IMG/VR virus record: IMGVR_UViG_3300027994_000002
Coordinates: 1-64,000 of that record
Length of the DNA: 64,000 bases
DNA from: a virus
Strand: one strand, 5' to 3'
In this document: positions 8,181 through 39,811 of the stretch, piece by piece
How the letters are laid out: each line of letters starts with the position of its first letter
Numbering within the stretch: position 1 is the first letter of the stretch
Position numbers and translations under genes: made by a program
Notes under the pieces: model-generated
Databases searched by the model: none
Told to the model about the DNA's origin: nothing
Seen by the model: only the letters and a program-made list of their open reading frames with translations

Positions 8181-8196
8181 TCCATTAGGCTAATAC

Positions 8197-8228
8197 ATTG
8201 CGCCTTTTCAGAAATGGAAGGGCGCAAT
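8197..8228 (+). terminator. strong stem-loop after the capsid gene (terminator or mRNA-stabilising hairpin)
   Basis: ATTGCGCCTTT-loop-AAGGGCGCAAT forms about 11 bp including one G-U pair. No clear U-tract follows. Confidence 0.45.
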
Positions 8229-8251
8229 AATTAGCTCAAGGATTTAAAACT

Positions 8252-10366: not shown

Positions 10367-10367
10367 C

Positions 10368-11237
<870 letters not shown>

Positions 11238-21031: not shown

Positions 21032-21769
21032 ATGACACCGACCCCCGCCGCCTCTGCCGCCGTCCAGTATGCGCCAGCGCAAGCGGCGATTCAGAGCAAT
21101 TACAATTCCGCGCAGGCCCTCAACGCGCAAACGCCGCCGAAAACTTATGAGCCCGATCTGAATGAGCTCAACGATACCGCCGCCCTCCTTTCCCGCGCTC
21201 AAGTTCTCCAAAACAATCAGGCTCTAGCCTTGCGTTCTCCCGCCGCGTTTCAGGGCCAAGAACGTGCCATCGCCTCCTTAACAGGCGGGATAGAGGGTGA
21301 TGATCAATTTCTTCGCAATGCGGCCCTTCGCTCTGGACTCATTGGAGCCGCCAACCAAGGAACCGCCGGAATGGCGGGCGGTATTAGCCCGACCTCCGCC
21401 GGGGGCGTGACGGCAGAAAAGATTTACGGCAGTAAGCTCCTCGATTACCGCAACGCAAGAGACCAACAAGCATTGGGGGTCGCTCAGGCCTTACAACCCG
21501 ACGCCGCCCTTTCGCCTGCTTCTGGAATCGGATTGCAAGTTCAATCCCAACAGCAGGGCATCCAAAACCAAAACGATTGGCAGGCCTACCTCGCCAACTC
21601 CCGCCTTGGAAGCGTCAGTAATCTTCAGGGCCTGACGCAACAGGCTATGGGCCTGACGCAGGCCAACAACAACGCCAATGCCGCCGCTTCCAATGCCTCC
21701 AAGGGCCAACTTGCGGGGGCTGGCGCCTCTCTGGCTGCCGCTGGCATCGGAGCTGCCGTTATTCTTTAA
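21032..21769 (+). CDS. Q/A/N-rich low-complexity protein with Gly/Ala hydrophobic C-terminus (internal virion protein-like)
   Basis: Composition, and the C-terminal GAGASLAAAGIGAAVIL. Confidence 0.5.
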   Translation: MTPTPAASAAVQYAPAQAAIQSNYNSAQALNAQTPPKTYEPDLNELNDTAALLSRAQVLQNNQALALRSPAAFQGQERAIASLTGGIEGDDQFLRNAALRSGLIGAANQGTAGMAGGISPTSAGGVTAEKIYGSKLLDYRNARDQQALGVAQALQPDAALSPASGIGLQVQSQQQGIQNQNDWQAYLANSRLGSVSNLQGLTQQAMGLTQANNNANAAASNASKGQLAGAGASLAAAGIGAAVIL

Positions 21770-22587
21770 TGGACGCTCTCGCCAATGACCCCGTTCTGCA
21801 AGGCAAGATCAACTCGGCCGCACGAGTGATTGAAAAGTGCCTAGAGGTCTACAGAAAGCCCGCAATCCTATGCTCTTTTGGCAAGGATTCGCTTTTAATG
21901 CTCTACATGATTCGGAATTATTGTAGCGTGGATTTGCCTGTCGTTTTTTTCAAGCAACCGCACTTTGCCCGCAAGTTTGCCTTCGGGGATAAAATGGCCG
22001 CCGAACTTGAATTGGAGGTTCATTCCAATATCCCTCCCTTCGGCATCAGCTTGACCAGCAAAAACGGCAAGTCAGAATTGGTTCATCATTTTAGCCTGGG
22101 CAAGCAAACGCTAATGATGCCATTAGGCGTTCAGAGCATCGAAAGCAAAGCAAAGTGGCTGTGCGCGACGGAATCGTTGCTCTCAGGTCCATTTGGGACG
22201 TTTGGCTGGCCCTGGGACGTTGCTTTCTGCGGGCATAAAAGCTCCGACGTTGACCCCCTTCAGGGGCAGGTCCCGCTTTCCGTTGACATTCATCAAATTG
22301 AGGGCTCCTGCCACCTCGCCTACCCGCTGAGGCATTTTACAGATCAGGATGTCTGGCGGCTGACCAAAGCCTGGGATATTCCCGTCAATCGCTTGCGGTA
22401 CGGGAACGCGGATCAGCCTCAAGACGATACGGAGAATTATTTCAACGAAGACTATTTTCCTTATTGCATGAAATGTTGCGATCCCAATCAACCCGATTTT
22501 GTGACTTGCCCTAAAACGGGATTGGAGGTAACAAATATCCATCGCTCCATTCCTCAAATTGACCCCAAAAAAGCCTACTGCTCATGA
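21769..22587 (+). CDS. PAPS-reductase / PP-loop ATP-pyrophosphatase family protein
   Basis: PAILCSFGKDSLLMLYMI matches the SGGKDS PP-loop context of the PAPS_reduct family. A Cys-rich C-terminus is present (CMKCCD...CP). Confidence 0.7.
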   Translation: MDALANDPVLQGKINSAARVIEKCLEVYRKPAILCSFGKDSLLMLYMIRNYCSVDLPVVFFKQPHFARKFAFGDKMAAELELEVHSNIPPFGISLTSKNGKSELVHHFSLGKQTLMMPLGVQSIESKAKWLCATESLLSGPFGTFGWPWDVAFCGHKSSDVDPLQGQVPLSVDIHQIEGSCHLAYPLRHFTDQDVWRLTKAWDIPVNRLRYGNADQPQDDTENYFNEDYFPYCMKCCDPNQPDFVTCPKTGLEVTNIHRSIPQIDPKKAYCS

Positions 22588-23006
22588 ACCCAAAAGCACC
22601 CGATAATCGCGTTGACCTTGGCGCCCAGGCCCGGCAGGCCGAGCAGCAAAGAATTCAGCAGCAGCAGATGTGGCAAGCCGAACAAGAAGCCACGCGACAG
22701 GCGCAAATGGCCCAAGAACAGCAAGCCGCCGCCTCTGCTCTTCAATCCCAACAGCAGGCGACCGCGCAACAGGCGCAATTCGACGCCATCAACGCCGGGC
22801 AAGGTTCCGCAGCCAATGCAACAGGCGGGGCCTCCGGCATTAAGGCCGCAAACACCGCCTTGACCAATTCTGCGGGAATGAGCCCGGAGCAAATCAAGCT
22901 TCAGGCCGCCGGAATTGCCTCCGACCCTAATTCCATTCAGAACCTCGCGGCCCGCAAATCCCAAGGCGGACTCTTGAGCTCCAGTAACGTCAAGCTCGGT
23001 GGATAA
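22584..23006 (+). CDS. Q-rich coiled-coil protein ending in VKLGG (paralog A)
   Basis: MNPKAPDN...QQRIQQQQMWQAEQE...SSSNVKLGG-stop. ATGA overlap. Confidence 0.5.
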   Translation: MNPKAPDNRVDLGAQARQAEQQRIQQQQMWQAEQEATRQAQMAQEQQAAASALQSQQQATAQQAQFDAINAGQGSAANATGGASGIKAANTALTNSAGMSPEQIKLQAAGIASDPNSIQNLAARKSQGGLLSSSNVKLGG

Positions 23007-23033: not shown

Positions 23034-23447
23034 ATGAATCCAGGAACACCTAAAGACAATTCCGGTCAGCTATACGCCCAGCAGGCCGCTCAACAGCAAG
23101 CCCTCCAGCAACAGCAATGGGTTCAAGAGCAACAGGCGGCTCGTGCCAACGAACAGGCCCAACTTGCTCAAAAGGCTCAAGAGCAAGCCGCCTTGGAAGC
23201 TTCCAATAAACTCGCGGAGCAAAAGGAAGCTCAGGAAAAACTTATCCAGCAACAGCAGCAGGCGGCGGCCACCGCAGCGACTCCTTACCTGAATTCAGGA
23301 ACAGCAACCGGCCTGAAGGCCATTAACGCCGCCCCAAACCTCGTTGGGGAGGCTCCAGTTGGAGGCTTGCCCGGTTTCAATGCCGTCGCCAATAAAGCCA
23401 AACAAGGCAACTCACTCGCCGCAACCAGTGTCAAGCTCGGAGGCTAA
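23034..23447 (+). CDS. Q-rich coiled-coil protein ending in VKLGG (paralog B)
   Basis: MNPGTPKDN...QQQALQQQQWVQEQQ...ATSVKLGG-stop. Same ends and composition as the 22584 gene. Confidence 0.5.
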   Translation: MNPGTPKDNSGQLYAQQAAQQQALQQQQWVQEQQAARANEQAQLAQKAQEQAALEASNKLAEQKEAQEKLIQQQQQAAATAATPYLNSGTATGLKAINAAPNLVGEAPVGGLPGFNAVANKAKQGNSLAATSVKLGG

Positions 23448-24950
23448 ATGGAAGTCCAAATCCAAAATCTTTCCAGGCCTTCCAATGGAATTCCCGCGAT
23501 TCTTCCGTTGGCCTATCTTGCGCCCGGGCAAATCGGGGGCCCTGATAGCGGCGTGGAGGCTTTTGGCGCGGGCATCAAAGAAGGCCAAGCTGTCGTTGCT
23601 CCACTTGCGGAAATGGGCAACTATTTGACGCAGTATTCTTCTCCAGAATCCGAAGCAAAAAGGAAAGCGGCGATTGCGCAGGCGGGCCTAGTGGAAACAA
23701 CCGCCGGACAGGAAAACGAGGCCGCAAAAGCCACCCCAGACTTGCCTTTGGCGCAACGCCAATTCCAAGGGGAGCAAATTGCCTCCGGCCGCACCCTGCT
23801 CCCGGCTCAGACCAATTTGGCGCTGGCTCGCATGGATTCTGAGGGCCGCATTCTTCCCGCGCAAACCGACTTAACCCTGGCAAAGATTGGCTCGGAAGCG
23901 CAATTACTGCCCGGGCAAACCGAGGCCAGTGCGGCGGCCAATAGAGCCGCTTTACTCAACGCCAACAACGTTCTCAGCACGACGCCCTCTTACGCGCCAA
24001 ATATGACGCAGGATGAAATCATGCGCAATGAGGCCGCGAAGAAAGGGGCCTTAAGCCAAGCGGGATTCCAGAGGGAAGTTGCCATTGCCTCCAATCCATT
24101 CCTCGCCTCCGATGGCATCACGGCACCGGAGGGCAAGTACGTTTCTAATGGGAAACTTTTGGAAGACACCGTGACTCAGCGGAACGTGCAGGGAGAAGAC
24201 GGGAAAATTTACATCCAGAACGTTTGGTCTCACTCCGGCAAGCCTGTCAGCTACCTGCAAGATCAACTTTCTGGAACCAACGCAACAATCGAAGCCGCAA
24301 ACGAGAGGCAGGGAAGAGGTATTGCCGCTCGCTCGCCGACGTACGGGGCCGAGGGGGCGCAAGTCACGCTCACGCCCGCTGAATCCACACAAACCAACAA
24401 GGCCATTCAAAATTTCAAAGGCCGAGGCGACGTTCAGGCGGTAGTCAAGATTACTCCTTTGGTGGATCGGGCGTTGTCTCAAATCAATGCTTCCAGGGAC
24501 GCCAAAACAGGTCTCGTTTCCGTGGACGCCATGCTTTCTGCCGCCCGCGCTTTCCGAGGCCAGGTCACAGATTCCGAAATGAAACAATTGAGCAATGCTG
24601 GAGGCTTGCAGCAAAACCTCTATCAGCTTTTCCATATTCTGGACGGTAAGAAATTTGACGAAAGAACAATGTCTGACCTGACGGCCTCTTTGTTGGCCGT
24701 GCGCAAAGAAGGCGATGAGTTTCTCAATAACCGCATCTTGCCCGATTTCAAGAAATCCCTGCCATTGAATGCTCGGCCTATTGCCGACGATCTTTTTGGT
24801 CAAGTGGCCTATCGCGACGCTTCTCACGGCGAGCAGGCAGCGCAACCCGGAGAGCCGCCGATCATCGCGGATAAAACCGCTTACGACGCGCTTCCCAAAG
24901 GAACTCCCTATCGGGCTTCCGACGGCCAACTCTACATCAAGGGTCAATAA
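23448..24950 (+). CDS. hypothetical internal/ejection-type protein (500 aa)
   Basis: Three tandem 18-aa repeats (LLPAQTNLALARMDSEGR / ILPAQTDLTLAKIGSEAQ / LLPGQTEASAAANRA) at about 23800-23940. Stop-start overlaps on both sides. Confidence 0.5.
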   Translation: MEVQIQNLSRPSNGIPAILPLAYLAPGQIGGPDSGVEAFGAGIKEGQAVVAPLAEMGNYLTQYSSPESEAKRKAAIAQAGLVETTAGQENEAAKATPDLPLAQRQFQGEQIASGRTLLPAQTNLALARMDSEGRILPAQTDLTLAKIGSEAQLLPGQTEASAAANRAALLNANNVLSTTPSYAPNMTQDEIMRNEAAKKGALSQAGFQREVAIASNPFLASDGITAPEGKYVSNGKLLEDTVTQRNVQGEDGKIYIQNVWSHSGKPVSYLQDQLSGTNATIEAANERQGRGIAARSPTYGAEGAQVTLTPAESTQTNKAIQNFKGRGDVQAVVKITPLVDRALSQINASRDAKTGLVSVDAMLSAARAFRGQVTDSEMKQLSNAGGLQQNLYQLFHILDGKKFDERTMSDLTASLLAVRKEGDEFLNNRILPDFKKSLPLNARPIADDLFGQVAYRDASHGEQAAQPGEPPIIADKTAYDALPKGTPYRASDGQLYIKGQ

Positions 24951-27900
24951 TGCCATCTCCTTTTGGCGACACCCCCATCTCCTCTCCAGGCGCAAGCCCT
25001 TTCGGCGATACGCCGCACGCGCCAGAGCAGCCAAAAGCTTCTCCTTTTGGAGACACGCCAACGGCACCCGATTCCCGCGAAATCAAAATCGCTCAAGCTG
25101 CAAACGACCCCACTTTTGATCCCGTTCAGGTTTATGCCTCGGTGGATCCCATGTCCGTGAGCCAGCAGCTCAACAATCCATCCCAAGACCCCGAAGAGCC
25201 TGTCTTCAAACAAGCAGCGGAAGAGTTCAATCGCATGATGGAAGTGAGGCAATTTGCCGCCGATGTCTTGAAGCATAAACTGGCCATGAAGGAAGCCAAT
25301 GCGCCCAAGACTTTACTGGGGAAGGTTGGAGAAAATGCGGCCTACGCGGGCGATGTTGCCCTCAATCTAGTGCCCCATAAAACTCCTGAAGGGGAATGGA
25401 GCTCAGGAGGTCTGCTCCACGGCGCAGAAGCGGTTGTCGACATGGTCGCGGCGGCTCCTGGGGCCGCAATCAATACGGTCGTTCAAGGCGCGGGCGACCT
25501 TGGCCTTATCGATAAAAATTCCCCCGCCTACCAAACCGCCGCCCTCAAGAATTACGCCTCAGGGGAAGGCGTTGCCAATTCCCTTTACAACCCCATCACA
25601 GGCCGAGCCGCAGGAAACATTCGGGCCGTCGGACAAGAGCTCGGCGATTGGCTTTCCGGAGGGCCTAAAACGGACGCCGAAATTCATCGCTATCTGGAAT
25701 CTCGAGTTGCCAACCTCCAAAGCCGAGCCAAAACAGAAGAGGCGATGACAGGAGCCTTGAAAGAAGTCGTTGGAGCGCCGGAGGATAGCCAACTCACAGA
25801 TGAATCGAGGGCCATTAAGGAATTTGCCCAAACCAATGCCGAGTTCGCCGTCGATCCCATGAACGTTGCCTTCCTTGGAGCCGGGAGAGCGATGACGGGA
25901 ATCGCTCGTGCCGCAACGCCTGCCATTCGGGCTGCCGCCGTTTCCCCTGTTGTTATTCAGGCCAAAAACCTCGCCGCACAAGCCGCTTCCAAGGGCGTTC
26001 AGGGATTCGGCAAAAGCATTAATACGGTCGGGAATATTGGCGCAAGTTCATTGGGCCAAGCCGCAACCAACATCGCTTTTGGCGCGCTCGCCGGTAAAGA
26101 GCTGGGCTCCGAGCTGGCGGGAGCTGCCGCTGGAGCAATCCTAGGAACCAAGGGGCACGGTATTGCGGGCCCCCTCTGGAATTCGGTCTCTCGAGCCGGG
26201 GGCGCGTTGGAAGGGCGCGGGGCCGAGCTTGCCCCTGATTTCATTGGCCCTGTTCGGCCACCGGGAACACCGGGGGCGTTGTCCAAAATCGCGGGCAACC
26301 CTCTGGCTAAAAATGCCCTCGCTGGAGCTATCTTCTCCCTGCCCTTCCTCGCCATTGCGCCTAATGCGGAAGAAGCTGCCAATACGCTTGGTATTGGGGC
26401 GGCCTTTGGAGTCCTCGGCGGCCTTTCTTCCAAGAATTACAATTACGGCCTGCGTCAGATGGGGCAGAAATACTTTGCGGAACTTGCTCCGGAAAGGTAC
26501 GGGATGCCAGCCGAAGTCAACGGAACTCCAGTCGATCTGGATGCCCTTCACGAACGGGCCATTAAGCAACTCACGCCCCAGCAGCAACTAGCCCTGCAGT
26601 CCATGCGCGGCTTTCTTCCTGGGGCTCAAATTTACGCCCTCAGCCCTCACGACCTAGGGCAAGTCGCTACGCAGGCCGGGCTACCGACGGCCTCCGGTAT
26701 TTACGATGCCCCTCAGATCACGACGCAGCTCAACATTGGGGGCAAGCCCCAAACCGTCATCCTGCTTAATGCCGGCCTCGCGGCCTTGAATCATGAAAGC
26801 GGGCATTTCATTTGGGATAACCTCACCCCCGAGCAGCAAGGTAAGCTCACCAATCAGGTTGCCCAAGTGGACCCCAAAATTCTTCAAGACGCCTATCTGA
26901 AGTACACGCTCGCCCACGCCAAGGCCTTTAATTTTCAAACCGCGCTGCCTAAAAACGCCCTGGCGATTGACGCCTCCGGAAATCCCGTGATAGATCCAAG
27001 CCTGAAGCCGGAGGAAAAAGCCGCCGTTCAGCAGGCGTTGGATTACTGGAATAGCCATCCTGATGGTCTTGTCAAAGAGTACATCGCAGAGAATTTCAAC
27101 GATCTTGCCAATCGCAAGGGCGGCGAAAAAGAATCCCTCGCCGGACATACGGGCAACAAAAGCCTCGCGCAAGAATTTGAGGACGCCTTCAACTCGGTGA
27201 AACAAAGACTCGGAGGCAAAGGCCGCGAATCTGCCCTTGGATTCCAGGTGGATACTAAACTGCAAGATCAAATGCGGGCTGTTTTGAAAGACCTTGCCGC
27301 ACAGCGCAAGCGGGAAGGCATTATAACTCCAAGCCAACCTCCCCCAAGTGCCCCAGGAGCTCCGATTCCGCCCGTAAGCTCCATTGCCCCGCCTCCAGCA
27401 GCAGGAGCGCCTATAGCGGCCCCAACGGCCTCCGCCTCCACGGCCGAACAAACCCGTGTTCAGGGCAATTTTGATGATGCCGCCAAAGCCGGAAAGACTC
27501 TCAAGCTTAACAAGGCGCAAATTCAACAGGGCCTTGAGTCTGCCAAGAGGGATGGCCTCACGGAAACGGAAGATATCGTCAAGCGGATGGTGAATCCCGG
27601 CTATTATCCCGACGGATCCAACATTCTCCCGGGCGGGCAAGTAGAGTCGGCCCTACCATTGGCCAATATCGAGGGCGCAATCGAGCAGGGTAAAGCGAAT
27701 GCCGCCGCTCTTTCTTCTCAGGCGCAAGGCAGGGATCCTAATTTTGACCCCAACGTTAACGAGGTGATCAAACCCCTAGCCAACGAAACCCTCGGCGCAA
27801 CGCCTGATCAAATCGAGGCCCTCAAAGCCAAAGGCTACACACAGGCCCAAATTGATGCCATGCAGCCAAGAGAGATCGAGGCCATTTTAGGCGGTCAACT

Positions 27901-30900
27901 GGGTAACATTCGCGTTCAGTCGGGACAGGGCCTCAAGGCTTCCATTGATCCCTTTGCTCGAACGGGAATCCCCTCCAAAGTCCCGCCGCTGAGCGCCTCG
28001 GGAGGGCTGCCTATTGTTGGCCTGCGGCAAGTGCGAGATCGCATTGTGGATGCCGAAGGCAATATCTCTCAAGGGCCTGTCAAAAAAACCCTTTCCGGTC
28101 GCGCTATCAATATCAATGATCCCGCCGAGGTGAAGCTCGCAAACGATGCCGCAAGGGATTCCGGCAATCCAGATCAATTTGAGAATAACCTGAATGCCGT
28201 CCAGGACGCCATTGCCTCCGGAAGAGAAATCAACTTTGCCTATCGATCCAGCAAATCCGAGGTGGAGGGCTCCCCAACGAATAAAGAGCGCGACGAGGCA
28301 CAAGAATTGTCCGATCTTGGGTTATCCCTACGTGAGGCGGTTCAAAAAACCTTCACGCCAACCAATTTTGAAGTTGATCCAGCAAAACTGGAGCCTGTGT
28401 TCAGTGAAGCAAGTGCTCAAAATGCCATGGCGCGGGCCGCTGAAAAATGGCCAAATCGTCGCGCCAACTGGAACCTATCCGCCTTCCGGGACCTCAGCGA
28501 ATTCAATGCCGCCGCAATGGAAGTCGCCAGGGCCAGCGAGGAAGGACGCCCGATTCAGGGCCTGAACGCCAAACAGATTGGGGCCGTTCGTGACCTTCTA
28601 GAAAAAGAAAACAAGGTTCGCTTCCTCATCAAAGGCTATTCTCAGGACAAGGTCATTGCCAACGCAAAAAACCTTTCCGAGGCAATCGAAGCTTCTGGCC
28701 TGAATTCAGATCCACAAGTCGCTCGCGCCCAGGCCTACCTGAAAAGCGGCGAATGGGTTCAAGATTTAAAAGACCGAAACGAAAACATGGCCCACGGCTA
28801 TCGCGGAGACGGCCAGCCCTTTTTGGATTCTCGGGGGATCGATCAATCTGAAGCTCGTCGCGGATCCGAAGGGGCTCCTACACCTAAAATCATCCCCGAC
28901 GAGCGCATTCAAGTTCTGAACGTCCTGGAAGGAGGAACCAGCGGCAAGTACTGGCCTGAGGCTAGAGAGAATGCGGCGACCGCCGGAAGAGATCCTGTTA
29001 CCGGAAAACCAGCCCAATCCACCAACCCGCTTCAGGCCAAACTGGAAAGCCTGGGCAAAAACCTCTTCCTCGACCGCGCAGGTCGTCGCATTGAAGGCCT
29101 CGGGGACATTGTATCCCCTGCCAGTGAAACGCTCCGCCTGGACCGCGTCGAGGACGCCAGCGGGCAGGCTCCAGTTGAGCTACCGCCCTCCAATTACGCT
29201 CAGCGAGCGGCAGGCTTCATGCCAGAGGCCAACGAGCCTAATAGGCTTGTCAATGAATCCGATTTCACCCATACTAACCAACATGCCAAAGCCCTTAGCA
29301 ACCTTGGATTCACCGCAAGAGAAGAAACTAACCGTTCAGGAAATGTTCGGTCAGGCGGCAGAAACAGCGATGGAGGAGGGCAAGAAATTGACCCATACAC
29401 AGGCACTCGCCCAGTTGCGCCGGAACAGTGGCTACAAAGCTACGTCGACCACCTCTCGTCCGAAGCGGGCAATGGTTCCTACTCAGGCGAAGGCAATCAA
29501 TCCCTCCTCACTCACGCCGAAAACAGCGGGTCCCTTGTCCCGCCTGTAAAAGTCGAAAGATTACAGTCTTTCCCTGGAGGATCCGGCGTTGAACATGATG
29601 TCTACTTCCCGCCGACAGCCAAAGGCCAAACCCAGAAAGTTTACAAGATTACAAAACCGGGAGCCCACGGTTTTAGCGGAGATGAAATTAGCTATGTCAA
29701 GTATATCGATAACCTGAACAAACTGACGGGCGGCAAGCTGGGGGGCGAAATCTTGGGCGTCGCTGAGCAAAGCAAAGTGGAAGACCCTTGGGTCGTGGAC
29801 GATTATCTAGAAGAAGGTGTTTGGCCTGGAATCGTAACCAAATGGAATTACATTCCAGGTAAGGTCCCTGGGCCTCTTTTTGAATCCAAGCTCAAGAACA
29901 CCTACGGCTTCGAGAAGACAGGCCTGAATGAATGGACGCACAAAGACACAGGAGTCGTCTTGAAAGACGCCCATAAGTCCAATTTCATCGAGAACAGTAA
30001 GGGCAAGCTAATTCCCATTGATGTCCATGTCGAAGGCGACGTAACTAAGCCAATGTTTATGCCCGCGGCTGAAGGTTTTGAAAATAAAAGTTCATTGAGG
30101 GAAAGATATACACCGGGAGAACCCGTTAGGCATCGCATTTCAGGCTGGCACGCAACGCTTGCGGAACCGGATGAAATTATTTCCATTCTTAAAAATGGAT
30201 TAATTCCAGGCAAGCGAGAAGCCCCGCAAGGCTGGCCCGGGGAATACAGCGGAAAAGGGATTTATATTCACCAAAGATTTCCTGGCCATGAACTTGAAAA
30301 CGGCTTAGCAGATGGAATTCCTTCAACGGCATTAATTGAACTCAAAGACAATAGGCGATGGAATGAATTGGTTCCAGACGAAGAGGTTGGCGATCCAGGG
30401 GAACTCGCCGCAAGCATAAGGGATGGAACACCAATAGCTGTAGGGGGGGGCTTTGACGCTGGATCTATCAAAAATATATGGCTTCCAGATGTTCCTGCAT
30501 CTCACGAAATCGCAAAAGAAATCGAGAAAATCGCAGAAGAACAAAAGATCATCGTGCCTCCTATTATTTTTGAAAAAAAGGCCAGCTTTATGCCTGAAAC
30601 CGAAAATGGGTTCGATGATTCTATCGATATTCGTAAATCGTACGGAGGAATACTACTCGGGAATGGAAAGTACTATTCCGCAGCAATTGGAGAGCAAGGC
30701 CATGGGAAAGCCTACGATGAAATATTTAAAGAATACGGATTTCCAGCTAAAGACTTTAATGTGTTTGATGAAATCAACGCCGTTAGAATCGTGGATTCAA
30801 AGGGGCGTAATACAATTTACGCGGAATCCTTGAGCAAAAAACCAATATCCAGAGACCAAAAAGAATGGTTGCTAAATCAAGCGATGACGCACGGAAGGAA

Positions 30901-32455
30901 ACTCGTTTTTGATAGCGGAAGTAATTCCAGAGAAATCTATGACCCCAAAAAAGCTGAATTCATGCCCGAAAGCGAACCCATTGAAGGAGAACAAAGGCCT
31001 CTCGCCAATGCAGGCTTCGGGCGCGAAAATGAACTCCATGAAGAAAATCAACCAGCAAATCCCCTCAATTCCGCCGAAGCGTCGCCCGGAAACAATCCGG
31101 ACAGGCAGGCCCTTTCTGCCCGAGAACTTTCAACCCGCTCCAAAGCGCACTACCGGCAATTCATCCGTCAATACGAGCCCGAAGCCCGCCCTTTCATCGG
31201 CCAATTTCTAAAGTCTACTCAAGAGGAATTGCATTCTCTTTCGCCTGAAGATAGGCGGGCGGCCTACGAAGATCTCGTTAATAAGAAACTGCAAGGCAAA
31301 GGCCCAGAAGCAATGGAAATCGCCCAAGGTGAGCTGGGCTACGTGTTGCCAAGCGAAGGAGAAAACGCCAGCGGCCCCTTCGGCCTCACAGTAGAAGAGG
31401 AAGCCCCTTTCTTTGAGGCCGTTGGGATCAATCGCATGGAGGAGAGTGACCTGCCGGAAGCCAATCCCTCCCACCCGTTCATTGATCTCACAGGCGAATC
31501 TTTGAAAGATTTTGAGCTTACTCCCGCCCAATCGGAGCTTGTTGTTCACCCGGTCAAGACAATTCTCAATAAGCTAACGGAAGCGAAGGCTTCCAGCGAG
31601 CTCCCCGAGACGCTTTCCGCCGCCGAGCTCGGCGTTACAACGACTAATATCGAATCGGAGCACCTCGACGCCTTTGACGCGCATTTTGGGAAGAACCAAT
31701 GGGTACTCAAGCCGTTTGATGTGGATAAATCCCTTCAAGGCCAAGGCATTTATTTGCCTGAGAATCTAAGGCGTCTTGTTGCAGGTGAAAAAGCCTCCTA
31801 TAACAGAGGCTATTCCGAACAAGGCTCTGGTAGCGTGGAATTGGCAAAAGAGCACATGCAAGCTGATATCGCCTCCCACGGCATCGAGAATTACATGGTT
31901 CAAAAAAGGCTCGACTTGGACGGGGAAACCCCGGAAAGCATTGCCGCCGGAGAAACGATTCTTCCAGGTGAAATGCGCGTGCATGTCTGGTGCGACATGA
32001 AAGGCGAACCACACGTGATCCCCTACGCGACCTTTGACAAACGGCTCGCCGACAAAAACAATCACACGGCCTTCGGTTACTCCACCAAGGCGACCAAAGC
32101 CGCTGAAAAAGCGGCCTACAAGGCCATCAAAGCCCTGCCTTTAGAAGATCGCATCGGTTCTTTCTTTGGCCCTGATATCGTCCGCCTCAAGGACGGTAGT
32201 TACAAGCCTGTCGAGCTCAACCCGACCTACGTTCGAGGCCAACACGAACCCCTTCCTGGAGAAGAAGAAAGCACGGGGTCAGCCTCCGGCTATGCGGGCT
32301 ACCCAACAGCCATGGCGGCAATCATCGCCTTTCAGCGCGGCGAGCTTCCTTTCCACGCCCAGTTTGCCCTCGAGCAATTGGAGGCAACCCTGCCTAAAAA
32401 GCAATGGCCCCAAGCGACCGAAGAGGAAATGGCCCTCTCCGGCGCTCAGTTTTAA
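24950..32455 (+). CDS. giant multi-domain 'polyvalent' protein (2501 aa): HExxH peptidase + kinase-like + PARP/ART-like + ATP-grasp-like modules
   Basis: Uninterrupted 7.5-kb ORF with a TAATG overlap to the upstream gene. Domain motifs are listed as separate entries. Confidence 0.8.
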   Translation: MPSPFGDTPISSPGASPFGDTPHAPEQPKASPFGDTPTAPDSREIKIAQAANDPTFDPVQVYASVDPMSVSQQLNNPSQDPEEPVFKQAAEEFNRMMEVRQFAADVLKHKLAMKEANAPKTLLGKVGENAAYAGDVALNLVPHKTPEGEWSSGGLLHGAEAVVDMVAAAPGAAINTVVQGAGDLGLIDKNSPAYQTAALKNYASGEGVANSLYNPITGRAAGNIRAVGQELGDWLSGGPKTDAEIHRYLESRVANLQSRAKTEEAMTGALKEVVGAPEDSQLTDESRAIKEFAQTNAEFAVDPMNVAFLGAGRAMTGIARAATPAIRAAAVSPVVIQAKNLAAQAASKGVQGFGKSINTVGNIGASSLGQAATNIAFGALAGKELGSELAGAAAGAILGTKGHGIAGPLWNSVSRAGGALEGRGAELAPDFIGPVRPPGTPGALSKIAGNPLAKNALAGAIFSLPFLAIAPNAEEAANTLGIGAAFGVLGGLSSKNYNYGLRQMGQKYFAELAPERYGMPAEVNGTPVDLDALHERAIKQLTPQQQLALQSMRGFLPGAQIYALSPHDLGQVATQAGLPTASGIYDAPQITTQLNIGGKPQTVILLNAGLAALNHESGHFIWDNLTPEQQGKLTNQVAQVDPKILQDAYLKYTLAHAKAFNFQTALPKNALAIDASGNPVIDPSLKPEEKAAVQQALDYWNSHPDGLVKEYIAENFNDLANRKGGEKESLAGHTGNKSLAQEFEDAFNSVKQRLGGKGRESALGFQVDTKLQDQMRAVLKDLAAQRKREGIITPSQPPPSAPGAPIPPVSSIAPPPAAGAPIAAPTASASTAEQTRVQGNFDDAAKAGKTLKLNKAQIQQGLESAKRDGLTETEDIVKRMVNPGYYPDGSNILPGGQVESALPLANIEGAIEQGKANAAALSSQAQGRDPNFDPNVNEVIKPLANETLGATPDQIEALKAKGYTQAQIDAMQPREIEAILGGQLGNIRVQSGQGLKASIDPFARTGIPSKVPPLSASGGLPIVGLRQVRDRIVDAEGNISQGPVKKTLSGRAININDPAEVKLANDAARDSGNPDQFENNLNAVQDAIASGREINFAYRSSKSEVEGSPTNKERDEAQELSDLGLSLREAVQKTFTPTNFEVDPAKLEPVFSEASAQNAMARAAEKWPNRRANWNLSAFRDLSEFNAAAMEVARASEEGRPIQGLNAKQIGAVRDLLEKENKVRFLIKGYSQDKVIANAKNLSEAIEASGLNSDPQVARAQAYLKSGEWVQDLKDRNENMAHGYRGDGQPFLDSRGIDQSEARRGSEGAPTPKIIPDERIQVLNVLEGGTSGKYWPEARENAATAGRDPVTGKPAQSTNPLQAKLESLGKNLFLDRAGRRIEGLGDIVSPASETLRLDRVEDASGQAPVELPPSNYAQRAAGFMPEANEPNRLVNESDFTHTNQHAKALSNLGFTAREETNRSGNVRSGGRNSDGGGQEIDPYTGTRPVAPEQWLQSYVDHLSSEAGNGSYSGEGNQSLLTHAENSGSLVPPVKVERLQSFPGGSGVEHDVYFPPTAKGQTQKVYKITKPGAHGFSGDEISYVKYIDNLNKLTGGKLGGEILGVAEQSKVEDPWVVDDYLEEGVWPGIVTKWNYIPGKVPGPLFESKLKNTYGFEKTGLNEWTHKDTGVVLKDAHKSNFIENSKGKLIPIDVHVEGDVTKPMFMPAAEGFENKSSLRERYTPGEPVRHRISGWHATLAEPDEIISILKNGLIPGKREAPQGWPGEYSGKGIYIHQRFPGHELENGLADGIPSTALIELKDNRRWNELVPDEEVGDPGELAASIRDGTPIAVGGGFDAGSIKNIWLPDVPASHEIAKEIEKIAEEQKIIVPPIIFEKKASFMPETENGFDDSIDIRKSYGGILLGNGKYYSAAIGEQGHGKAYDEIFKEYGFPAKDFNVFDEINAVRIVDSKGRNTIYAESLSKKPISRDQKEWLLNQAMTHGRKLVFDSGSNSREIYDPKKAEFMPESEPIEGEQRPLANAGFGRENELHEENQPANPLNSAEASPGNNPDRQALSARELSTRSKAHYRQFIRQYEPEARPFIGQFLKSTQEELHSLSPEDRRAAYEDLVNKKLQGKGPEAMEIAQGELGYVLPSEGENASGPFGLTVEEEAPFFEAVGINRMEESDLPEANPSHPFIDLTGESLKDFELTPAQSELVVHPVKTILNKLTEAKASSELPETLSAAELGVTTTNIESEHLDAFDAHFGKNQWVLKPFDVDKSLQGQGIYLPENLRRLVAGEKASYNRGYSEQGSGSVELAKEHMQADIASHGIENYMVQKRLDLDGETPESIAAGETILPGEMRVHVWCDMKGEPHVIPYATFDKRLADKNNHTAFGYSTKATKAAEKAAYKAIKALPLEDRIGSFFGPDIVRLKDGSYKPVELNPTYVRGQHEPLPGEEESTGSASGYAGYPTAMAAIIAFQRGELPFHAQFALEQLEATLPKKQWPQATEEEMALSGAQF
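26792..26806 (+). other. HExxH zinc-peptidase motif inside the giant ORF (codons 615-619)
   Basis: Codons cat gaa agc ggg cat encode HESGH, in the context LNAGLAALNHESGHFIWDNL. Confidence 0.5.
29552..30040 (+). other. protein-kinase-like module inside the giant ORF
   Basis: FPGGSGVEHDVY (Gly-loop-like), KVYKITK (Lys), VLKDAHKSNFI (catalytic-loop-like D..N) and LIPIDVHV (DFG position). Confidence 0.5.
30128..30400 (+). other. PARP/ADP-ribosyltransferase-like (H-Y-E) module inside the giant ORF
   Basis: SGWHAT..IISILKNGLIPGKREAPQGWPGEYSGKGIYIHQRF...ALIELK parallels the PARP pattern hGS..IL..GL......G..fGKGIYFA...E. Candidate catalytic residues are H1734, Y1772 and E1797. The Y-E spacing is shorter than in PARP1. 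Confidence 0.45.
31697..32230 (+). other. ATP-grasp-like module at the C-terminus of the giant ORF
   Basis: QWVLKPFDVDKSLQGQGIY, YMVQKRLDL, GEMRVHVWCDMKGEPHVI, and FFGPDIVRLKDGSYKPVELNP follow the order of ATP-grasp motifs. Confidence 0.55.
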
Positions 32456-35862: not shown

Positions 35863-36335
35863 ACAAAATAACCGAAAAGCATAGGGAAGTAGCTGAAAAG
35901 CTATTTATGGCAAATTACGTGGATGGGGCAAACGGGCCAACTGAAAATCCAGATAGTGAAGAGGCGATGGCTCAAATCCTAGCCGACGCGTTTCCTGAGC
36001 CAATAACGGTATCTATGGAGGACTACGAACTGAGCAAATTGCCGAAACTAGATCACAAAGGGAATGTTACCTATCTACCTACAAGCCTTGATCCGAAAGA
36101 GCGGATTAGGGAGCTGGAGAAGAATCTGGAAGAATCAAAACTAGGATACTTGAGACTAGAACAATTGTATTTCGACAAGCTGGATCAATCTAGCCGCATT
36201 AGCGAGTTGGAGACCAAGATTAAGGAGAAGGATAGATTGATGAAGCGATTCCAAAAAGTCGCGTTTCAGCACAGATTCGATAAAAAGGTGGGAAGATTGC
36301 TAACGCAATACGAAGCGCAGAAAGGGAAGGCCTAA
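35859..36335 (+). CDS. hypothetical coiled-coil protein (158 aa)
   Basis: The stop overlaps the stop of the convergent terminase gene. Confidence 0.45.
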   Translation: MNKITEKHREVAEKLFMANYVDGANGPTENPDSEEAMAQILADAFPEPITVSMEDYELSKLPKLDHKGNVTYLPTSLDPKERIRELEKNLEESKLGYLRLEQLYFDKLDQSSRISELETKIKEKDRLMKRFQKVAFQHRFDKKVGRLLTQYEAQKGKA

Positions 36336-38182
36336 TCAAAGCTCATGTATTGAATAGGTCCCACAATATCCTCTACAGGCTCCTGTTGGCGTTGGCTCGC
36401 GCCTGCTATCAGGACCGCCTCGAAGCCTTGCCTCATCCGCACGAGATGAACCAAAAGAGTCAAGCTATCAATCTCATCGGGCGATCGGTTTCCCCTTGCC
36501 TTATACTCCTTCTTTCCCTCCACTCGAACCTTGCTGGGGTGAGGTTTAAACCGCCTCGTGCACATCTGTTCCGTGAGTAAGGCGGTATCCATGCTGGGGC
36601 TGATTTTGAGGTAATCAAACTCTAGGAAATTACGGGCTGCAAAGAAAAGTTCTGTGACAATGCCGTCGTATAGATCACAGGCCTTTTGAGAGCTATCCGC
36701 GAACAGCTTGAGCTCTGTTGCGGCGGCTCCAAAGTGGATGCCTGCAACTTCGGATCCCAGGCCTTCTGGAGGTTCTGATCGGAGCATGTCGTGCAGCCCG
36801 GTTCCATTGCCTGTCCGGTCGCAAATCATCCAGACGCCTTTAATGGACAGGTTTCGGCAATGCATCTTCACCTGATGTGCCATCCACGGCGTTTGAGTCA
36901 TCTTTCCTTCGGGGTCATTCTTCAGCAGAGCAAATTGGCTCTCTGCCTGTAAGGCGTACTTTGGCTTATCGAAAAAGATGTTCTGGCCCCGTAAATTGTA
37001 GCCCGTCGCCATCCCAAAACGGCCGATGGTCATCGGGGCTTTATCGTCCCCTTCAAAGGCCGAATCCAGAGAAGCCAAGTAAGTGACGGGGCCTGTAAAA
37101 TTCAGCCGAGCAATGGCTTTTTCCATGAAATCACGAGGCACGACATTGATGGACAGGCCCTTGGCGGGAAACCAACCTCTTGCCATAGTGAAATATTCGG
37201 GCGATGTATCGCCCTGCAAAAGGTAGCGTTTATAGCCATCCCATGAGATCAGGCCTGGGAAAATAAGCTTTTGTTGGATGACGTTTTGGCACCGCGCTCC
37301 ATCGAGCCTAACGACCGACCATCCCCACTTGGATTTCCATTGAACCGAGTGCTCAATATCCACCGAAGCCCAGCCGTTTTCTGGCTCACACCGCTTTGCA
37401 AATTTGGAATCAATATCTCGTGGATTTGCCGCTGCCGCCACCTTCACGTGCTCCACGTCATCAATCGTGATGAGCATGTTATCGACGTCCTCCCAAATAC
37501 CTCCCGGCACCTCCTCGGCTTCATCGATACAGGCTCGCACGCGGGACATGACTCCAAACTTCGGGTGGGGAGTTTTACGGGGTACGGGGTGAAAACCCTG
37601 GAGCCTACCGGAGCCATCTTCGCCTTGAGGAATCGCCACAAGGTGGATGCCCTGTTTTTCGTCATTGGAGGCCTGAATGGATGTGCCTTTGGCAATCCCC
37701 GGAAGAGGAATCGAAGACTGCCGGTGCAAATTCTTGATATGCGCAAACGCATTCCGCATGGCATGCTCCAAAGTCAAGGAAACAACCTTGACACAGGTCC
37801 ATAAAGGGTCCTCAATCCAGTCGAGGAGAAAGAAGGCCGCAAACCCGTACGATTTCCCGAGAGAACCACCCCCTTGAACCAAAAGCGTGGCCGTGAGCCT
37901 AATCTCGCTCCAAATTAATTGGACGCTCTCCGGTTCGGCGTTGAACAGGTTACTGCCCCAAAGAATATGGGCCACATCCTTGTGCATGCCCTTGCCGATC
38001 ATGTAGGGGATCAGGGTTTTGTGATAATCAATCCCGCCGCCGTAGCCGATCAAATAGGCCAACCCCTGACCTTTTTCCACCTTGATCTCATGGACGCTAA
38101 ACTGATCAATCAGAACCTGTGCGCAGGCGTCATAATCTTTCTCATGCGCCAGCTGGCTCGCCAATTCAACGTATTCTTTCAC
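36332..38182 (-). CDS. terL: terminase large subunit
   Basis: Walker A QGGGSLGKSYG, Walker B RACIDEAEEV, a C-terminal RNase-H-like nuclease region (WMICDRTGNGTGLHD), and a length of 616 aa. Confidence 0.75.
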   Translation of the reverse strand: MKEYVELASQLAHEKDYDACAQVLIDQFSVHEIKVEKGQGLAYLIGYGGGIDYHKTLIPYMIGKGMHKDVAHILWGSNLFNAEPESVQLIWSEIRLTATLLVQGGGSLGKSYGFAAFFLLDWIEDPLWTCVKVVSLTLEHAMRNAFAHIKNLHRQSSIPLPGIAKGTSIQASNDEKQGIHLVAIPQGEDGSGRLQGFHPVPRKTPHPKFGVMSRVRACIDEAEEVPGGIWEDVDNMLITIDDVEHVKVAAAANPRDIDSKFAKRCEPENGWASVDIEHSVQWKSKWGWSVVRLDGARCQNVIQQKLIFPGLISWDGYKRYLLQGDTSPEYFTMARGWFPAKGLSINVVPRDFMEKAIARLNFTGPVTYLASLDSAFEGDDKAPMTIGRFGMATGYNLRGQNIFFDKPKYALQAESQFALLKNDPEGKMTQTPWMAHQVKMHCRNLSIKGVWMICDRTGNGTGLHDMLRSEPPEGLGSEVAGIHFGAAATELKLFADSSQKACDLYDGIVTELFFAARNFLEFDYLKISPSMDTALLTEQMCTRRFKPHPSKVRVEGKKEYKARGNRSPDEIDSLTLLVHLVRMRQGFEAVLIAGASQRQQEPVEDIVGPIQYMSFD

Positions 38183-38763
38183 ACTTCAAGAGCCTTGAAT
38201 TGAATCTCACTAATTGGCTTCATGCCGCCTGCAATCACCTTCTGACCCACAATCGTCTTGTAGGCATCCAGGAGAAACTTACCGGCTCCGCCCTTATCTA
38301 ACATCGCCTGAACAACGGCCATGTCCTTTTTAAGCGCGGGGTCATTCAAGTCTTCCACGCTCTGGATGTTCTCAATCCGCTTAATCTTGCCCACAAGGCG
38401 CATGACGCAATGCTCAATATCGCTCTTGGTTTGCAGGACAATCCGCTCCTGCCGATCGCTCTGATGCTCTTGAAGAAAAAGATCATAGGCCGCAACCCGC
38501 TTGGGCCATTGCCAATTCATGGAGGCATGTCGGATAGCTGAATGGGATTCTTTGACCTGACTCTCGGGAATGTTTTGCGCAATCGCCGAAGCCTTAATTG
38601 CCGACCGCTCATCCCAGGCAATGTCTCGATAAATCAAGAAGAGTTGGTAATCCCTATCACTCTCTTCCGGCTGCTGCCTATAAATAGGTTCCACAAGCGG
38701 AATGCGTTCTTTGTTGTCGCGATACTCTTTGGTATGGACAATGGGGTCGGTTTTACGAGGCAT
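38179..38763 (-). CDS. terS: putative terminase small subunit
   Basis: Lies directly upstream of terL with a 4-nt overlap, 194 aa. The call is positional only. Confidence 0.45.
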   Translation of the reverse strand: MPRKTDPIVHTKEYRDNKERIPLVEPIYRQQPEESDRDYQLFLIYRDIAWDERSAIKASAIAQNIPESQVKESHSAIRHASMNWQWPKRVAAYDLFLQEHQSDRQERIVLQTKSDIEHCVMRLVGKIKRIENIQSVEDLNDPALKKDMAVVQAMLDKGGAGKFLLDAYKTIVGQKVIAGGMKPISEIQFKALEV

Positions 38764-39807: not shown

Positions 39808-39811
39808 AACT

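Follow-up and report, generated by a model that had tools for sequence, protein, structure and literature searches.

A giant phage polyvalent protein with predicted kinase, ADP-ribosyltransferase and ATP-grasp ligase modules, probably carried in the virion

The window analysed here is a stretch of 64,000 nucleotides of viral DNA (positions 1 to 64,000 of IMG/VR record IMGVR_UViG_3300027994_000002). At 24950..32455 of the plus strand it carries a giant gene, the final gene of the late block on that strand. The ORF runs from an ATG at 24950 to a stop at 32455 with zero in-frame stops and encodes a polyvalent protein of 2501 aa; the single uninterrupted frame of the original prediction is present as described, and every motif listed there was found in its assigned place. 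An identical protein is encoded in two independent assemblies, the JGI contig (68,846 bp) and Logan SRR8536159, and a related phage contig encodes a syntenic 1785-aa homologue; hence, the ORF is not an assembly chimera. A gene for a 500-aa protein (23448..24950, +) adjoins the giant gene, whose ATG shares one base with the TAA stop of this upstream partner (TAATG). The two genes are translationally coupled. In three other phage contigs the giant gene also lies directly 3' of a gene for 500-700 aa, and the upstream gene of one of them (L004) is a detectable homologue of the 500-aa partner. Tail-fibre-like genes precede the giant gene in the same block. Past 32455 the coding strand switches and the early/replication block begins; the giant gene is likewise the last before a strand switch in two of the three other contigs (L004 and L006). 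A terminator scan 3' of the giant gene found none.

The neighbouring genes lack database matches, and no head, portal, nozzle or capsid gene of the present phage was identified. Two of them, encoding 635 and 402 aa, gave no tblastn match among GenBank phages, and the 635-aa protein had no PDB match either as a single sequence or as a profile; its assignment as a nozzle was dropped after comparison with a genuine nozzle by hhalign gave no support. A ubiquitin- or Pup-like role was considered for two small Q-rich proteins with a C-terminal KLGG and rejected, since the GG end is not kept in the related phage. Apart from the grasp module described below, the window contains no counterpart of the structural genes of a T7-like locus (L007). 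For the whole giant protein, Pfam returned only a sub-threshold match to Kinase-PolyVal, PHROGs returned no match, and the PDB sequence search gave a single chance-level match (E 2). NCBIfam scans made module by module found no match, nor did the IMG/VR scan; the query DNA has no nucleotide match among GenBank phages, and a general homologous-protein search returned the query alone or nothing. All homologues used below come from an exhaustive search of representative proteins with aa 1501-2501.

The protein opens with three SPFGDTP heptapeptides at aa 3, 16 and 31 (24956..25060, +; copies at nt 24956, 24995 and 25040). The copies differ in synonymous codons and no DNA tandem repeat was detected, so it is the peptide itself that is under selection. 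Other giant phage proteins open with analogous D/P/F(Y)/A(G) repeats in three to four copies (DPYAxVSxP, DPFAGVAxP, FDPDAFL, ILDLAEP). A Gly/Ala-rich, moderately hydrophobic stretch, delimited by composition, occupies aa ~300-500 (25847..26449, +), with its most membrane-like segment at aa 451-474; other giants show the same composition at aa 200-500. Farther on, composition also marks a Pro/Ala-rich linker at aa 791-835 (27320..27454, +). Both the hydrophobic stretches and the Pro-rich linker had been noticed in the original prediction, and we recover them at these positions. The middle region (aa 836-1422; 27455..29215, +) belongs to no recognisable family. Its conservation within the lineage follows from the 47% identity of aa 984-1425 to the relative P0013. 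At least five unrelated giant phage proteins have a chassis in common with this protein, in which brief D/P/F repeats at the N-terminus are followed by a Gly/Ala-rich stretch and then by an HExxH motif.

The HExxH region (aa 521-790; 26510..27319, +) is a putative zincin-like processing peptidase, as judged from the recurrence of its motif. The motif itself, HESGH (H615-E616-S-G-H619, nt 26792-26806), comes after a strand-like KPQTVILLN, and KE710YIAE714NF contains a candidate for the third metal ligand. HESGH is kept in P0013, and AHExxH occurs at aa 489-639 in P0007, P0015, P0027, P0006, P0036, P0032 and P0151 as well; at least five unrelated giant phage proteins carry AHExxH ~490-640 residues from the N-terminus. 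Profile comparison of the query and P0013 with P0007 over this region gave an hhalign E of 7.6e-5 over 145 columns. Moreover, the element A-x-E-[FYM] (KE710YIAE714 in the query) is aligned in 8 of 9 sequences from six lineages in a local MAFFT alignment. No zincin match to the region was found in Pfam or in the PDB profile search. The only PDB match, a 62-aa stretch of Fe-superoxide dismutase (E 1.4e-4), was rejected as functional evidence because it covers just those 62 residues and does not include the metal ligands. Of the HExxH peptidase originally predicted, the motif is at its site, but Pfam, PDB profiles and structure lend the peptidase assignment no support.

Downstream of the middle region, the tripeptide FMP stands at all four module borders: at aa 1423-1425 (29216..29224, +), at aa 1703-1705 (30056..30064, +), at aa 1880, where a 124-aa module starts (30587, +), and at aa 2004, where a linker or helical region starts (30959, +). 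From composition FMP is expected 0.07 times, against 4 observed (Poisson P(>=4) = 1e-6), and it is found also in P0003, P0013, P0007 and P0009. FMP is probably a processing site, with cleavage there hypothetical. Use of the FMP methionine as an internal translation start was considered and rejected: the sites are not consistently preceded by a Shine-Dalgarno-like sequence, and the Phe of the motif is conserved too.

Homologue profiles and conserved residues delimit a truncated protein-kinase module of the Kinase-PolyVal type at aa ~1530-1702 (29537..30055, +), into which the kinase-like span proposed earlier (29552-30040, aa 1535-1697) fits. The isolated segment scores 21.4 bits (E 2.7e-4) against Pfam PF18762 Kinase-PolyVal, below the gathering threshold of 27 bits. 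The homologues that it retrieves reach 31.4 bits against Kinase-PolyVal, and the best E of the family is 2.4e-14. E1548-H1549, K1566, D1673, N1678 and D1691 vary little or not at all among 26 sequences. With a length of only ~175 aa, the module fits loss of the kinase C-lobe. We assign it, by sequence relationship, to the Kinase-PolyVal lineage: its homologues pass the family threshold and the catalytic K/D/N/D residues are conserved, with the query itself sub-threshold.

The next module (aa 1703-1879; 30056..30586, +; GC3 0.356) has the ADP-ribosyltransferase (ART) fold in its AlphaFold2 model, and the ART-like span of the original prediction (30128-30400, aa 1727-1817) forms its core. Across aa ~1713-1872 the pLDDT of the model exceeds 90. 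Foldseek, the check proposed with that prediction, matched it in the PDB to ART enzymes, namely DarT (probability 1.0), Tpt1, TreX, PltA, pertussis toxin and scabin. The best structural matches, 7omu (E 1.9e-4) and 7yw4, are of the DarT and Tpt1/KptA class; profile matches are 8baq (E 0.0077) and 8tfz (E 0.068). Identity to DarT and Tpt1/KptA is 9-16%, and the profile similarity of the family to KptA/Tpt1 is limited to the His strand and a helix. No match of the query module was found to Pfam PARP, ART-PolyVal or other Pfam ART models; 8 of 17 family members match Pfam PARP weakly (best E 1.9e-4).

Among 25 ART family sequences H1734, T1736, Y1772, E1781, D1810 and E1811 are invariant. The ART fold of the original prediction is upheld, and so are H1734 and Y1772 of its H-Y-E triad. 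The proposed glutamate, E1797, is ~90% conserved, with Lys in two of the 25 members, whereas E1781 and D1810/E1811 never vary. ARTs of the H-Y-E type have a conserved His in strand 1, a conserved Tyr in strand 2 and their catalytic Glu where strand 5 begins; in the present family the residue ahead of the PIAV strand varies. Like DarT and Tpt1/KptA, the module shows a helix-GL motif after an N-terminal xHxT strand; its invariant acids E1781 and D1810/E1811 are at positions without an assignment to a known catalytic Glu, and a DarG-like partner is missing. KptA/Tpt1 RNA 2'-phosphotransferases use a catalytic R-H-R-R tetrad. The ART family alignment contains no invariant Arg, hence this tetrad is absent from the family. 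The model and alignment point to an H-Y-acidic ADP-ribosyltransferase of an undescribed family whose closest structural neighbours are DarT and Tpt1, ARTs that act on nucleic acids. By tblastn against GenBank phages only the ART module was matched, in phiRSL1 and Listeria phage LIS04, where the stand-alone homologues are located outside recognisable structural modules. Another relative, P0028, combines an ART-family module with a 2H phosphoesterase and the head of a CCA/poly(A) polymerase in one fusion. The 124-aa module that follows (aa 1880-2003; 30587..30958, +; GC3 0.379) has low AlphaFold2 confidence and no recognised fold, and is homologous to the P0013 C-terminus. Together, ART and the 124-aa module form a cassette with GC3 of 0.36-0.38 versus 0.52-0.61 in the other modules of the gene, the short Pro linker excepted.

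After the linker or helical region (aa 2004-2194; 30959..31531, +), which opens with the fourth FMP, comes an ATP-grasp ligase module at aa ~2195-2480 (31532..32389, +), delimited by its AlphaFold2 model (mean pLDDT 84.7, pTM 0.85) and motifs. The span previously read as ATP-grasp-like (31697-32230, aa 2250-2427) is its core. Foldseek gave 146 PDB matches at E<=1e-3; each of the 50 matches listed is an ATP-grasp enzyme, and they include PurK, Ddl, biotin carboxylase, TTL and PsnB. Conserved residues are K2208, K2254, Q2318, E2341-x-R2343-x-H2345, D2409 and E2422-x-N2424; of these, K2208, K2254, E2341-x-R2343, D2409 and E2422-x-N2424 show little or no variation within the family. A linker Lys, a strand-2 Lys, an Asp and an ExN, with the ExR of the peptide-ligase assemblage, serve as criteria for the ATP-grasp superfamily (PMC4431377). 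The module thus reads as a canonical ATP-grasp ligase by fold and motifs, and shares these elements with RimK, TTL, Ddl and PsnB. Unlike in peptide-bond-forming ATP-grasp ligases, a pre-ATP-grasp domain is not recognisable (upstream of K2208 the model has short helices at lower confidence, and a Rossmann-like domain is not evident), and the family resides in giant virion-type proteins, where it is repeatedly coupled to, or interrupted by, Kinase-PolyVal.

Pfam R2K_3 matches 5 of 16 grasp family members weakly (best E 1e-4). The R2K clade has a second Lys/Arg in the strand 2-3 loop and has lost the ssxGbGl loop and the linker Lys (PMC4431377), whereas the present family keeps an AAGYGI-type loop (AAGYGIF; SLQGQGI in the query) and the Lys of NKLxEA. 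Since the classical ssxGbGl-like loop and the linker Lys are retained, and ExN stands in place of ExGD, membership in R2K proper was rejected. On the model, we assign the C-terminal module to an undescribed family of carboxylate-amine ATP-grasp ligases. Of 126 representative proteins with a kinase or a grasp module, 20 have both in a single chain, and in 5 of those 20 the kinase is inserted inside the ligase; P0037 is a natural example of such nesting.

The relatives reshuffle these modules and connect them to virion genes. P0013 is without the ART and grasp modules and P0003 without the ART and 124-aa modules; among the 150 relatives listed, ART never co-occurs with the kinase or the grasp module. 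The gene for P0004, which has the grasp module, comes after genes for portal, capsid, nozzle (PDB 8ck1, E 2.5e-88), a 177-aa protein and an 869-aa protein, an order that corresponds to the place of gp16 in T7 and belongs to the structural module of a podovirus. The gene for P0018, a protein whose grasp module encloses the kinase, lies between portal and Phage_Mu_F genes. Among 22 large module-sharing proteins, two match Portal_Mu, two Phage_Mu_F, one Phage_portal_2 and one Phage_portal_3; module-sharing relatives also carry ART-PolyVal, C39 peptidase and 2H domains. Virion delivery is supported by relatives encoded at the gp16-like slot or between genes for portal and MuF, and by relatives in which the modules are joined to a portal or MuF domain. 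From gene position and these relatives we infer that the giant protein is present in the virion. Both the polyvalent-protein reading and the analogy to podovirus ejection proteins, as originally proposed, draw support from these relatives, the former from the Portal_Mu, Phage_Mu_F, ART-PolyVal and C39 domains of the large proteins and the latter from the slot of the P0004 gene.

The general kind of protein is already known. The paper on polyvalent proteins (Iyer et al. 2017, PMC5512222) describes giant multidomain phage proteins that string together unrelated effector enzymes and are predicted to travel with DNA; truncated Kinase-PolyVal, ART and a zincin HExxH domain, there proposed for autoprocessing, are among their domains, and the present protein shares the first two and, putatively, the third. 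The present protein combines three enzymatic folds and a chassis in one 2501-aa phage ORF. Its place in the same domain network follows from the Kinase-PolyVal lineage and from relatives with Portal_Mu, Phage_Mu_F, ART-PolyVal, C39 and 2H domains. We conclude that it is a polyvalent effector. It departs from the polyvalent proteins of that paper in having no detectable MuF, portal or N4-RNAP anchor domain, and its ART matches neither ART-PolyVal nor other Pfam ART models. The paper names ATP-grasp only with RNA ligases (two occurrences of the term), and neither FMP punctuation nor the N-terminal repeat and Gly/Ala chassis is among the features found in the part of it drawn on here. The enzyme set, and the ART and ATP-grasp module families, are missing from domain libraries.

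A comparison with T7 gp15 and gp16 is also instructive. As there, a large protein has a partner of ~500-870 aa encoded directly upstream, and in T7-like modules both genes come after the tail genes; the grasp homologue P0004 occupies exactly the gp16-like slot, the T7-like layout being shown for the P0004 locus alone. The lytic transglycosylase of gp16 is a precedent for an enzymatic domain on an ejected protein. Unlike gp16, the giant protein is about twice as long, has neither detectable sequence similarity to it nor a transglycosylase, and carries cargo that acts on cytoplasmic-type substrates (ATP, NAD+). Phage T4 Alt, an ADP-ribosyltransferase injected from the head (PMC9503650), and the T7 gp0.7 kinase, which phosphorylates host proteins including translation factors (PMC5512222), are likewise phage enzymes that covalently modify host proteins as infection starts. 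Each has a single function, in contrast to a kinase, an ART, a ligase and a delivery chassis on one polypeptide; moreover, the structure of the query ART resembles DarT/Tpt1 more closely than it does toxins of the Alt type.

Overall, we suggest that the protein is probably a virion-borne effector in which a delivery chassis carries FMP-separated cargo enzymes, injected with the DNA to modify host targets. The N-terminal ~1420 residues (acidic-aromatic repeats, a Gly/Ala-rich stretch that may be membrane-active, HExxH and the middle region) would be the lineage-conserved chassis. With the upstream 500-aa partner, it would have the protein packaged and then carried across the cell envelope with the DNA, like podovirus internal core proteins. 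The C-terminal ~1080 residues would be a cargo string between FMP motifs, comprising the truncated kinase, the ART, the small module and the ATP-grasp ligase. On entry, the cargo would probably be freed by cutting at FMP, possibly by the protein's own HExxH domain, and the freed enzymes might phosphorylate, ADP-ribosylate and attach amino acids or peptides to host targets, leading to takeover or to disarmed defence.

It is unlikely, in our judgement, that the protein is not packaged and is instead made in the infected cell, late or early, as a cytoplasmic multi-enzyme protein that serves host takeover or repairs or modifies phage nucleic acids, merely encoded beside virion genes. Presence in the virion rests on position and relatives, and the gene lies at the boundary with the early/replication block, with the strand switch after 32455; P0028 provides a cytoplasmic context of the RNA-repair type, and the ARTs of phiRSL1 and LIS04 stand apart from recognisable structural modules. 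Against this, the gene is coupled to the preceding late gene, a pairing kept in four phage contigs, a non-enzymatic N-terminal chassis of ~1400 aa with a Gly/Ala-rich stretch would be odd for a soluble enzyme, and there are the relatives described above, at the gp16-like slot or associated with portal and MuF. Great length and Gly/Ala-rich, hydrophobic, glycine-zipper-like segments, common in tape-measure proteins, could also suggest that the phage is long-tailed and that the protein has a structural role, as tape measure or otherwise associated with the tail, with enzymes acquired at its C-terminus. We consider this very unlikely: the gene ends its block after fibre-like genes rather than lying between tail chaperone and baseplate genes, PHROGs and Pfam gave no tape-measure match, the C-terminal 1080 residues are ATP- and NAD-dependent enzymes of cytoplasmic type, and a grasp-module relative is carried by a gene at the podovirus internal-protein position.

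We give still less credence to an injected RNA-repair kit against host anticodon nucleases, made up of a 5'-end kinase, a KptA/Tpt1-like 2'-phosphotransferase and an ATP-dependent ligase. Tpt1/KptA are indeed among the nearest structural and profile matches of the ART, P0028 joins ART to 2H and CCA-adding-type domains, and phage KptA-2H RNA repair is known (PMC9503650). However, the ART family lacks the R-H-R-R tetrad, the kinase has the protein-kinase fold of Kinase-PolyVal and is not a P-loop polynucleotide kinase, the grasp module has the ExR and ExN of peptide-bond-forming ligases with no RNA ligases among the Foldseek matches listed, and ART is never found with kinase or grasp among the 150 relatives listed.

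Injected phage proteins are active before any phage gene expression and are therefore prime candidates for disabling host defences. To our knowledge, few have been characterised beyond T4 Alt, N4 virion RNA polymerase and the P1 Dar proteins. T4 Alt is one such characterised protein (PMC9503650); N4 virion RNA polymerase and the P1 Dar proteins are others (PMC5512222). Phage R2K enzymes, in turn, are predicted to modify proteins in the conflict between phage and host (Burroughs et al. 2015, PMC4431377). The giant protein is a concrete example of a single delivery vehicle for three different predicted chemistries that modify proteins post-translationally or modify nucleic acids. Pfam, PHROGs and NCBIfam lack the ATP-grasp ligase family, the DarT/Tpt1-like ART family, the recurrent kinase-ligase coupling, the candidate processing motif FMP and the shared N-terminal chassis. 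A more tentative idea, which we regard as rather doubtful, is that Kinase-PolyVal and the ATP-grasp ligase work together as a conserved machine of two enzymes, borne on a common chassis with a new zincin of FMP-type cutting specificity and injected by many phages for an unknown composite modification of host proteins, e.g. phosphorylation-primed amino-acid or peptide tagging. If true, this machine would add a class not seen before to the injected chemistries of host takeover or anti-defence. Identification of the cargo enzymes and their targets might reveal new host vulnerabilities and new enzymology, such as phage-directed protein glutamylation-like tagging or nucleic-acid ADP-ribosylation.

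The giant gene is a single uninterrupted ORF on the + strand, running from an ATG at 24950 to a stop at 32455 and encoding 2501 aa. On re-checking the translation, all motif coordinates of the original prediction matched. A motif scan located three SPFGDTP repeats (aa 3, 16 and 31), HESGH (aa 615; 26792-26806) and four FMP motifs (aa 1423, 1703, 1880 and 2004), along with the stretch rich in Gly and Ala and the linker rich in Pro. The three SPFGDTP copies differ in their codons and no DNA tandem repeat was detected, which argues that the peptide itself is under selection. The same protein was found again in a 68,846-bp contig from JGI and, independently, in a Logan assembly, and a syntenic 1785-aa homologue, P0013, is encoded by a related 66,968-bp phage contig (L004). 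Hence, the ORF is genuine.

The proposed kinase-like module (aa ~1530-1702, ~175 aa) belongs to the Kinase-PolyVal lineage. The giant protein itself scores 21.4 bits against the Pfam Kinase-PolyVal model, under the 27-bit cut-off, but homologues retrieved with it reach 31.4, 26.7 and 25.8 bits, and the family is matched in 7 of 22 large relatives (best E 2.4e-14). E1548-H1549, K1566, D1673, N1678 and D1691 are invariant or near-invariant in a 26-sequence alignment. Published Kinase-PolyVal proteins lack the C-lobe (PMC5512222), and the residue pattern and length of our module fit that description. Membership is thus established through homologues and conserved catalytic residues.

The adjacent module (aa 1703-1879) was predicted to be PARP/ART-like, and modelling bears this out. 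A 17-sequence profile gave weak PDB matches to DarT1 (E 0.0077) and Tpt1/KptA, and Pfam PARP weakly matched 8 of the 17 family members. The AlphaFold2 model from a 25-sequence alignment has pLDDT >90 throughout; Foldseek matched it to DarT (E 1.9e-4, probability 1.0) as well as to Tpt1, TreX (an Rhs toxin), PltA, pertussis toxin and scabin. Two members of the suggested H1734/Y1772/E1797 triad stand, since H1734 and Y1772 are invariant in the 25 sequences, but E1797 is replaced by Lys in two; E1781 and D1810/E1811 are invariant. No arginine is invariant in the family alignment, which rules out a KptA. In tblastn searches with the giant protein this module matched two proteins with hypothetical annotations, ORF117 of phiRSL1 and LIS04_213 of a Listeria phage, and the phiRSL1 protein was also the best BFVD match of the model. 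In P0028, a 1552-aa relative, a module of the same ART family is flanked by a 2H (LigT-like) phosphoesterase and the head domain of a CCA/poly(A) polymerase, an RNA-end-processing context. Given this fusion, the ART target could be nucleic acid instead of protein.

The ATP-grasp call for the C-terminal module (aa ~2195-2480) is confirmed by both its motifs and its fold. By the criteria of PMC4431377 the family alignment holds a complete ATP-grasp signature: the linker Lys K2208 within NKLxEA, the strand-2 Lys K2254, an ssxGbGl-like loop, Q2318, E2341-x-R2343 (the ExR motif of peptide-bond-forming ligases), D2409 and E2422-x-N2424. For the AlphaFold2 model (mean pLDDT 84.7, pTM 0.85) Foldseek found 146 PDB structures at E<=1e-3, and those listed are ATP-grasp enzymes throughout, including PurK, Ddl, biotin carboxylase, tubulin tyrosine ligase and the RiPP ligase PsnB. 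Pfam R2K_3 matched 5 of 16 family members, weakly; R2K-specific features are absent and we rejected this assignment.

A word-indexed protein search with the giant protein recovered no relatives. Searched exhaustively with HMMER, 1.84 billion representative proteins yielded 179 matches to aa 1501-2501, which were mapped back onto the query and searched with module HMMs. Among the 150 listed, the grasp module occurs in 103, the kinase in 43 and the ART in 24. Grasp and kinase share a protein in 20 cases, while ART was found alongside neither in any of the 150. The mapping and the HMM searches resolve three modules that are independent of one another and have separate relatives. In five of the 20 (P0018, at 8001-11822 of contig L009, P0037, P0043, P0051 and P0092) the kinase is nested within the grasp module, inserted at its variable loop. 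P0013 aligns to aa 163-1706 and has the 124-aa module (aa 1880-2003) without ART or grasp; in the relative P0003 the kinase runs straight into the grasp region with neither ART nor the 124-aa module. The ART and 124-aa cassette (30056-30958) is bounded by FMP and has a GC3 of 0.36-0.38 (0.52-0.61 in the other modules, the short Pro linker excepted). It looks like a recent insertion.

The proposed HExxH peptidase fared less well: HESGH is in place, but neither Pfam models nor a PDB profile search detected zincin similarity in this region. The sole PDB match of a query and P0013 profile was Fe-superoxide dismutase 2a03_A (E 1.4e-4, 62 residues), at aa ~681-747 (26990-27190), around the SOD domain junction and with the metal ligands missing. 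Some support is circumstantial: P0013 retains HESGH and, further towards its C terminus, KEYIAE(N/Q)F. AHExxH also occurs at residues 489-639 of the giant phage proteins P0007, P0015/P0027, P0006/P0036, P0032 and P0151; in a local alignment a strand-like G(K/R)xxhxhN precedes each of them and A-x-E-[FYM] follows in all aligned giants except P0151. By hhalign, the query and P0013 region matches P0007 with E 7.6e-5 over 145 columns and the other giants weakly (E 0.04-0.4). P0013, P0007, P0006, P0036, P0032, P0015 and P0027 carry 2-4 N-terminal copies of a short acidic-aromatic D/P/F(Y)/A(G)-type motif (DPYAxVSxP, ILDLAEP, FDPDAFL, DPFAGVAxP and DLFDA among its variants), with no detectable N-terminal sequence similarity among these giants. 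In most AHExxH giants a segment rich in Gly and Ala lies at residues 200-500, between the repeats and AHExxH; in the seven proteins just named AHExxH comes after it, at about aa 550-640. All three elements recur in most of the same giants, which therefore have a common N-terminal chassis that includes the HExxH element, hypothetically a peptidase.

FMP is expected 0.07 times from the composition of the giant protein (P(>=4) about 1e-6) and stands at all its module borders, as well as at borders in P0003 (three), P0013 (two), P0007 (three) and another relative, P0009. Its Phe is invariant and the preceding residue variable; no Shine-Dalgarno-like sequence lies upstream of the internal FMP ATGs. 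We read FMP as a candidate site of proteolytic processing. Cutting immediately ahead of a bulky hydrophobic residue would suit a thermolysin-like zincin.

Nucleotide and tblastn searches of GenBank phages revealed no close relative of this phage. Upstream of the giant gene lie an NAD-dependent sugar epimerase/dehydratase gene (4888-5814) and, on the + strand, tail-fibre-like genes (8252-11237), one fibre having a K1-lyase-type C-terminal chaperone domain and another collagen-like repeats. A 1237-aa protein with fibre/baseplate-type matches is encoded on the same strand, as are several late proteins without database matches. Also upstream are a 245-aa Q/A/N-rich protein with a hydrophobic C-terminal tail, GAGASLAAAGIGAAVIL (21032-21769; 55% identical in L004), which may be a membrane-inserting internal protein, and a PAPS-reductase-like gene of the ATP pyrophosphatase family (21769-22587; Pfam E 3.2e-7; 62% identical in L004), an odd enzyme to find inside a late block. 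Closer to the giant gene, two Q-rich paralogues of ~140 aa (22584-23006 and 23034-23447) both end in VKLGG. Their L004 counterparts, at 7393-7869 and 7874-8359, finish with ATLG and VKLT instead, so that a GG terminus of the ubiquitin or Pup kind is not conserved. A 500-aa gene directly precedes the giant gene, its stop overlapping the giant start; 3' of the giant gene the strand switches to DnaB, Tet_JBP, Erf and exonuclease genes. In the early region, PRA-PH (MazG-like) and Tet_JBP dioxygenase genes (39343-41481) suggest hypermodification of DNA bases. Among the replication genes, the - strand interval 36332-38763 encodes one protein with a small-terminase-like PHROG match and an adjoining 616-aa ORF without a terminase match.

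Gene position is conserved. From the 1237-aa gene through the giant gene, late genes other than the two small Q-rich ones have homologues in the P0013 phage (28-62% identical). On the contigs of the more distant phages encoding P0007 and P0015, a 568- or 702-aa gene immediately precedes a 2209- or 2615-aa gene, and the P0007 contig also switches strand afterwards. Capsid, portal and nozzle genes were searched for in the window and none was identified. The link to the virion comes from relatives. P0004 has a C-terminal grasp module sharing 33-34% identity with ours and lies in a podovirus module of Head-tail_con portal, capsid, nozzle (PDB 8ck1, E 2.5e-88), a 177-aa gene and an 869-aa gene, where this relative, not the window phage, has its giant gene in the position of T7 gp16. 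P0018 is encoded between Phage_portal_2 and Phage_Mu_F genes, 3' of terminase. Pfam searches of 22 large module-sharing proteins found Portal_Mu (two), Phage_Mu_F (two), two other portal families, ART-PolyVal, C39 peptidases (three) and 2H domains (three). Such associations are hallmarks of head-packaged polyvalent proteins (PMC5512222), and to this extent the original polyvalent-protein idea is upheld.

Of the readings considered, a polyvalent effector delivered by the virion has the best support; the rivals, namely a tape measure protein, an RNA-repair kit and an enzyme acting in the cytoplasm, are each less well supported. The analysis shows the ORF, the ART and grasp folds, the family of the kinase, conservation of catalytic residues, shuffling of modules and a conserved gene position, and from these we infer packaging, ejection, cleavage and host targets. 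The concept itself is already known. In the domain libraries and papers searched we did not find this module combination, the DarT/Tpt1-like ART family, this ATP-grasp family as a polyvalent module or its recurrent Kinase-PolyVal coupling, the FMP punctuation, or the shared N-terminal chassis. Overall, we suggest that the conserved chassis would serve delivery and processing, and that exchangeable cargo enzymes, probably set free by cleavage at FMP, would after ejection phosphorylate host targets, ADP-ribosylate them or ligate amino acids or peptides onto them.
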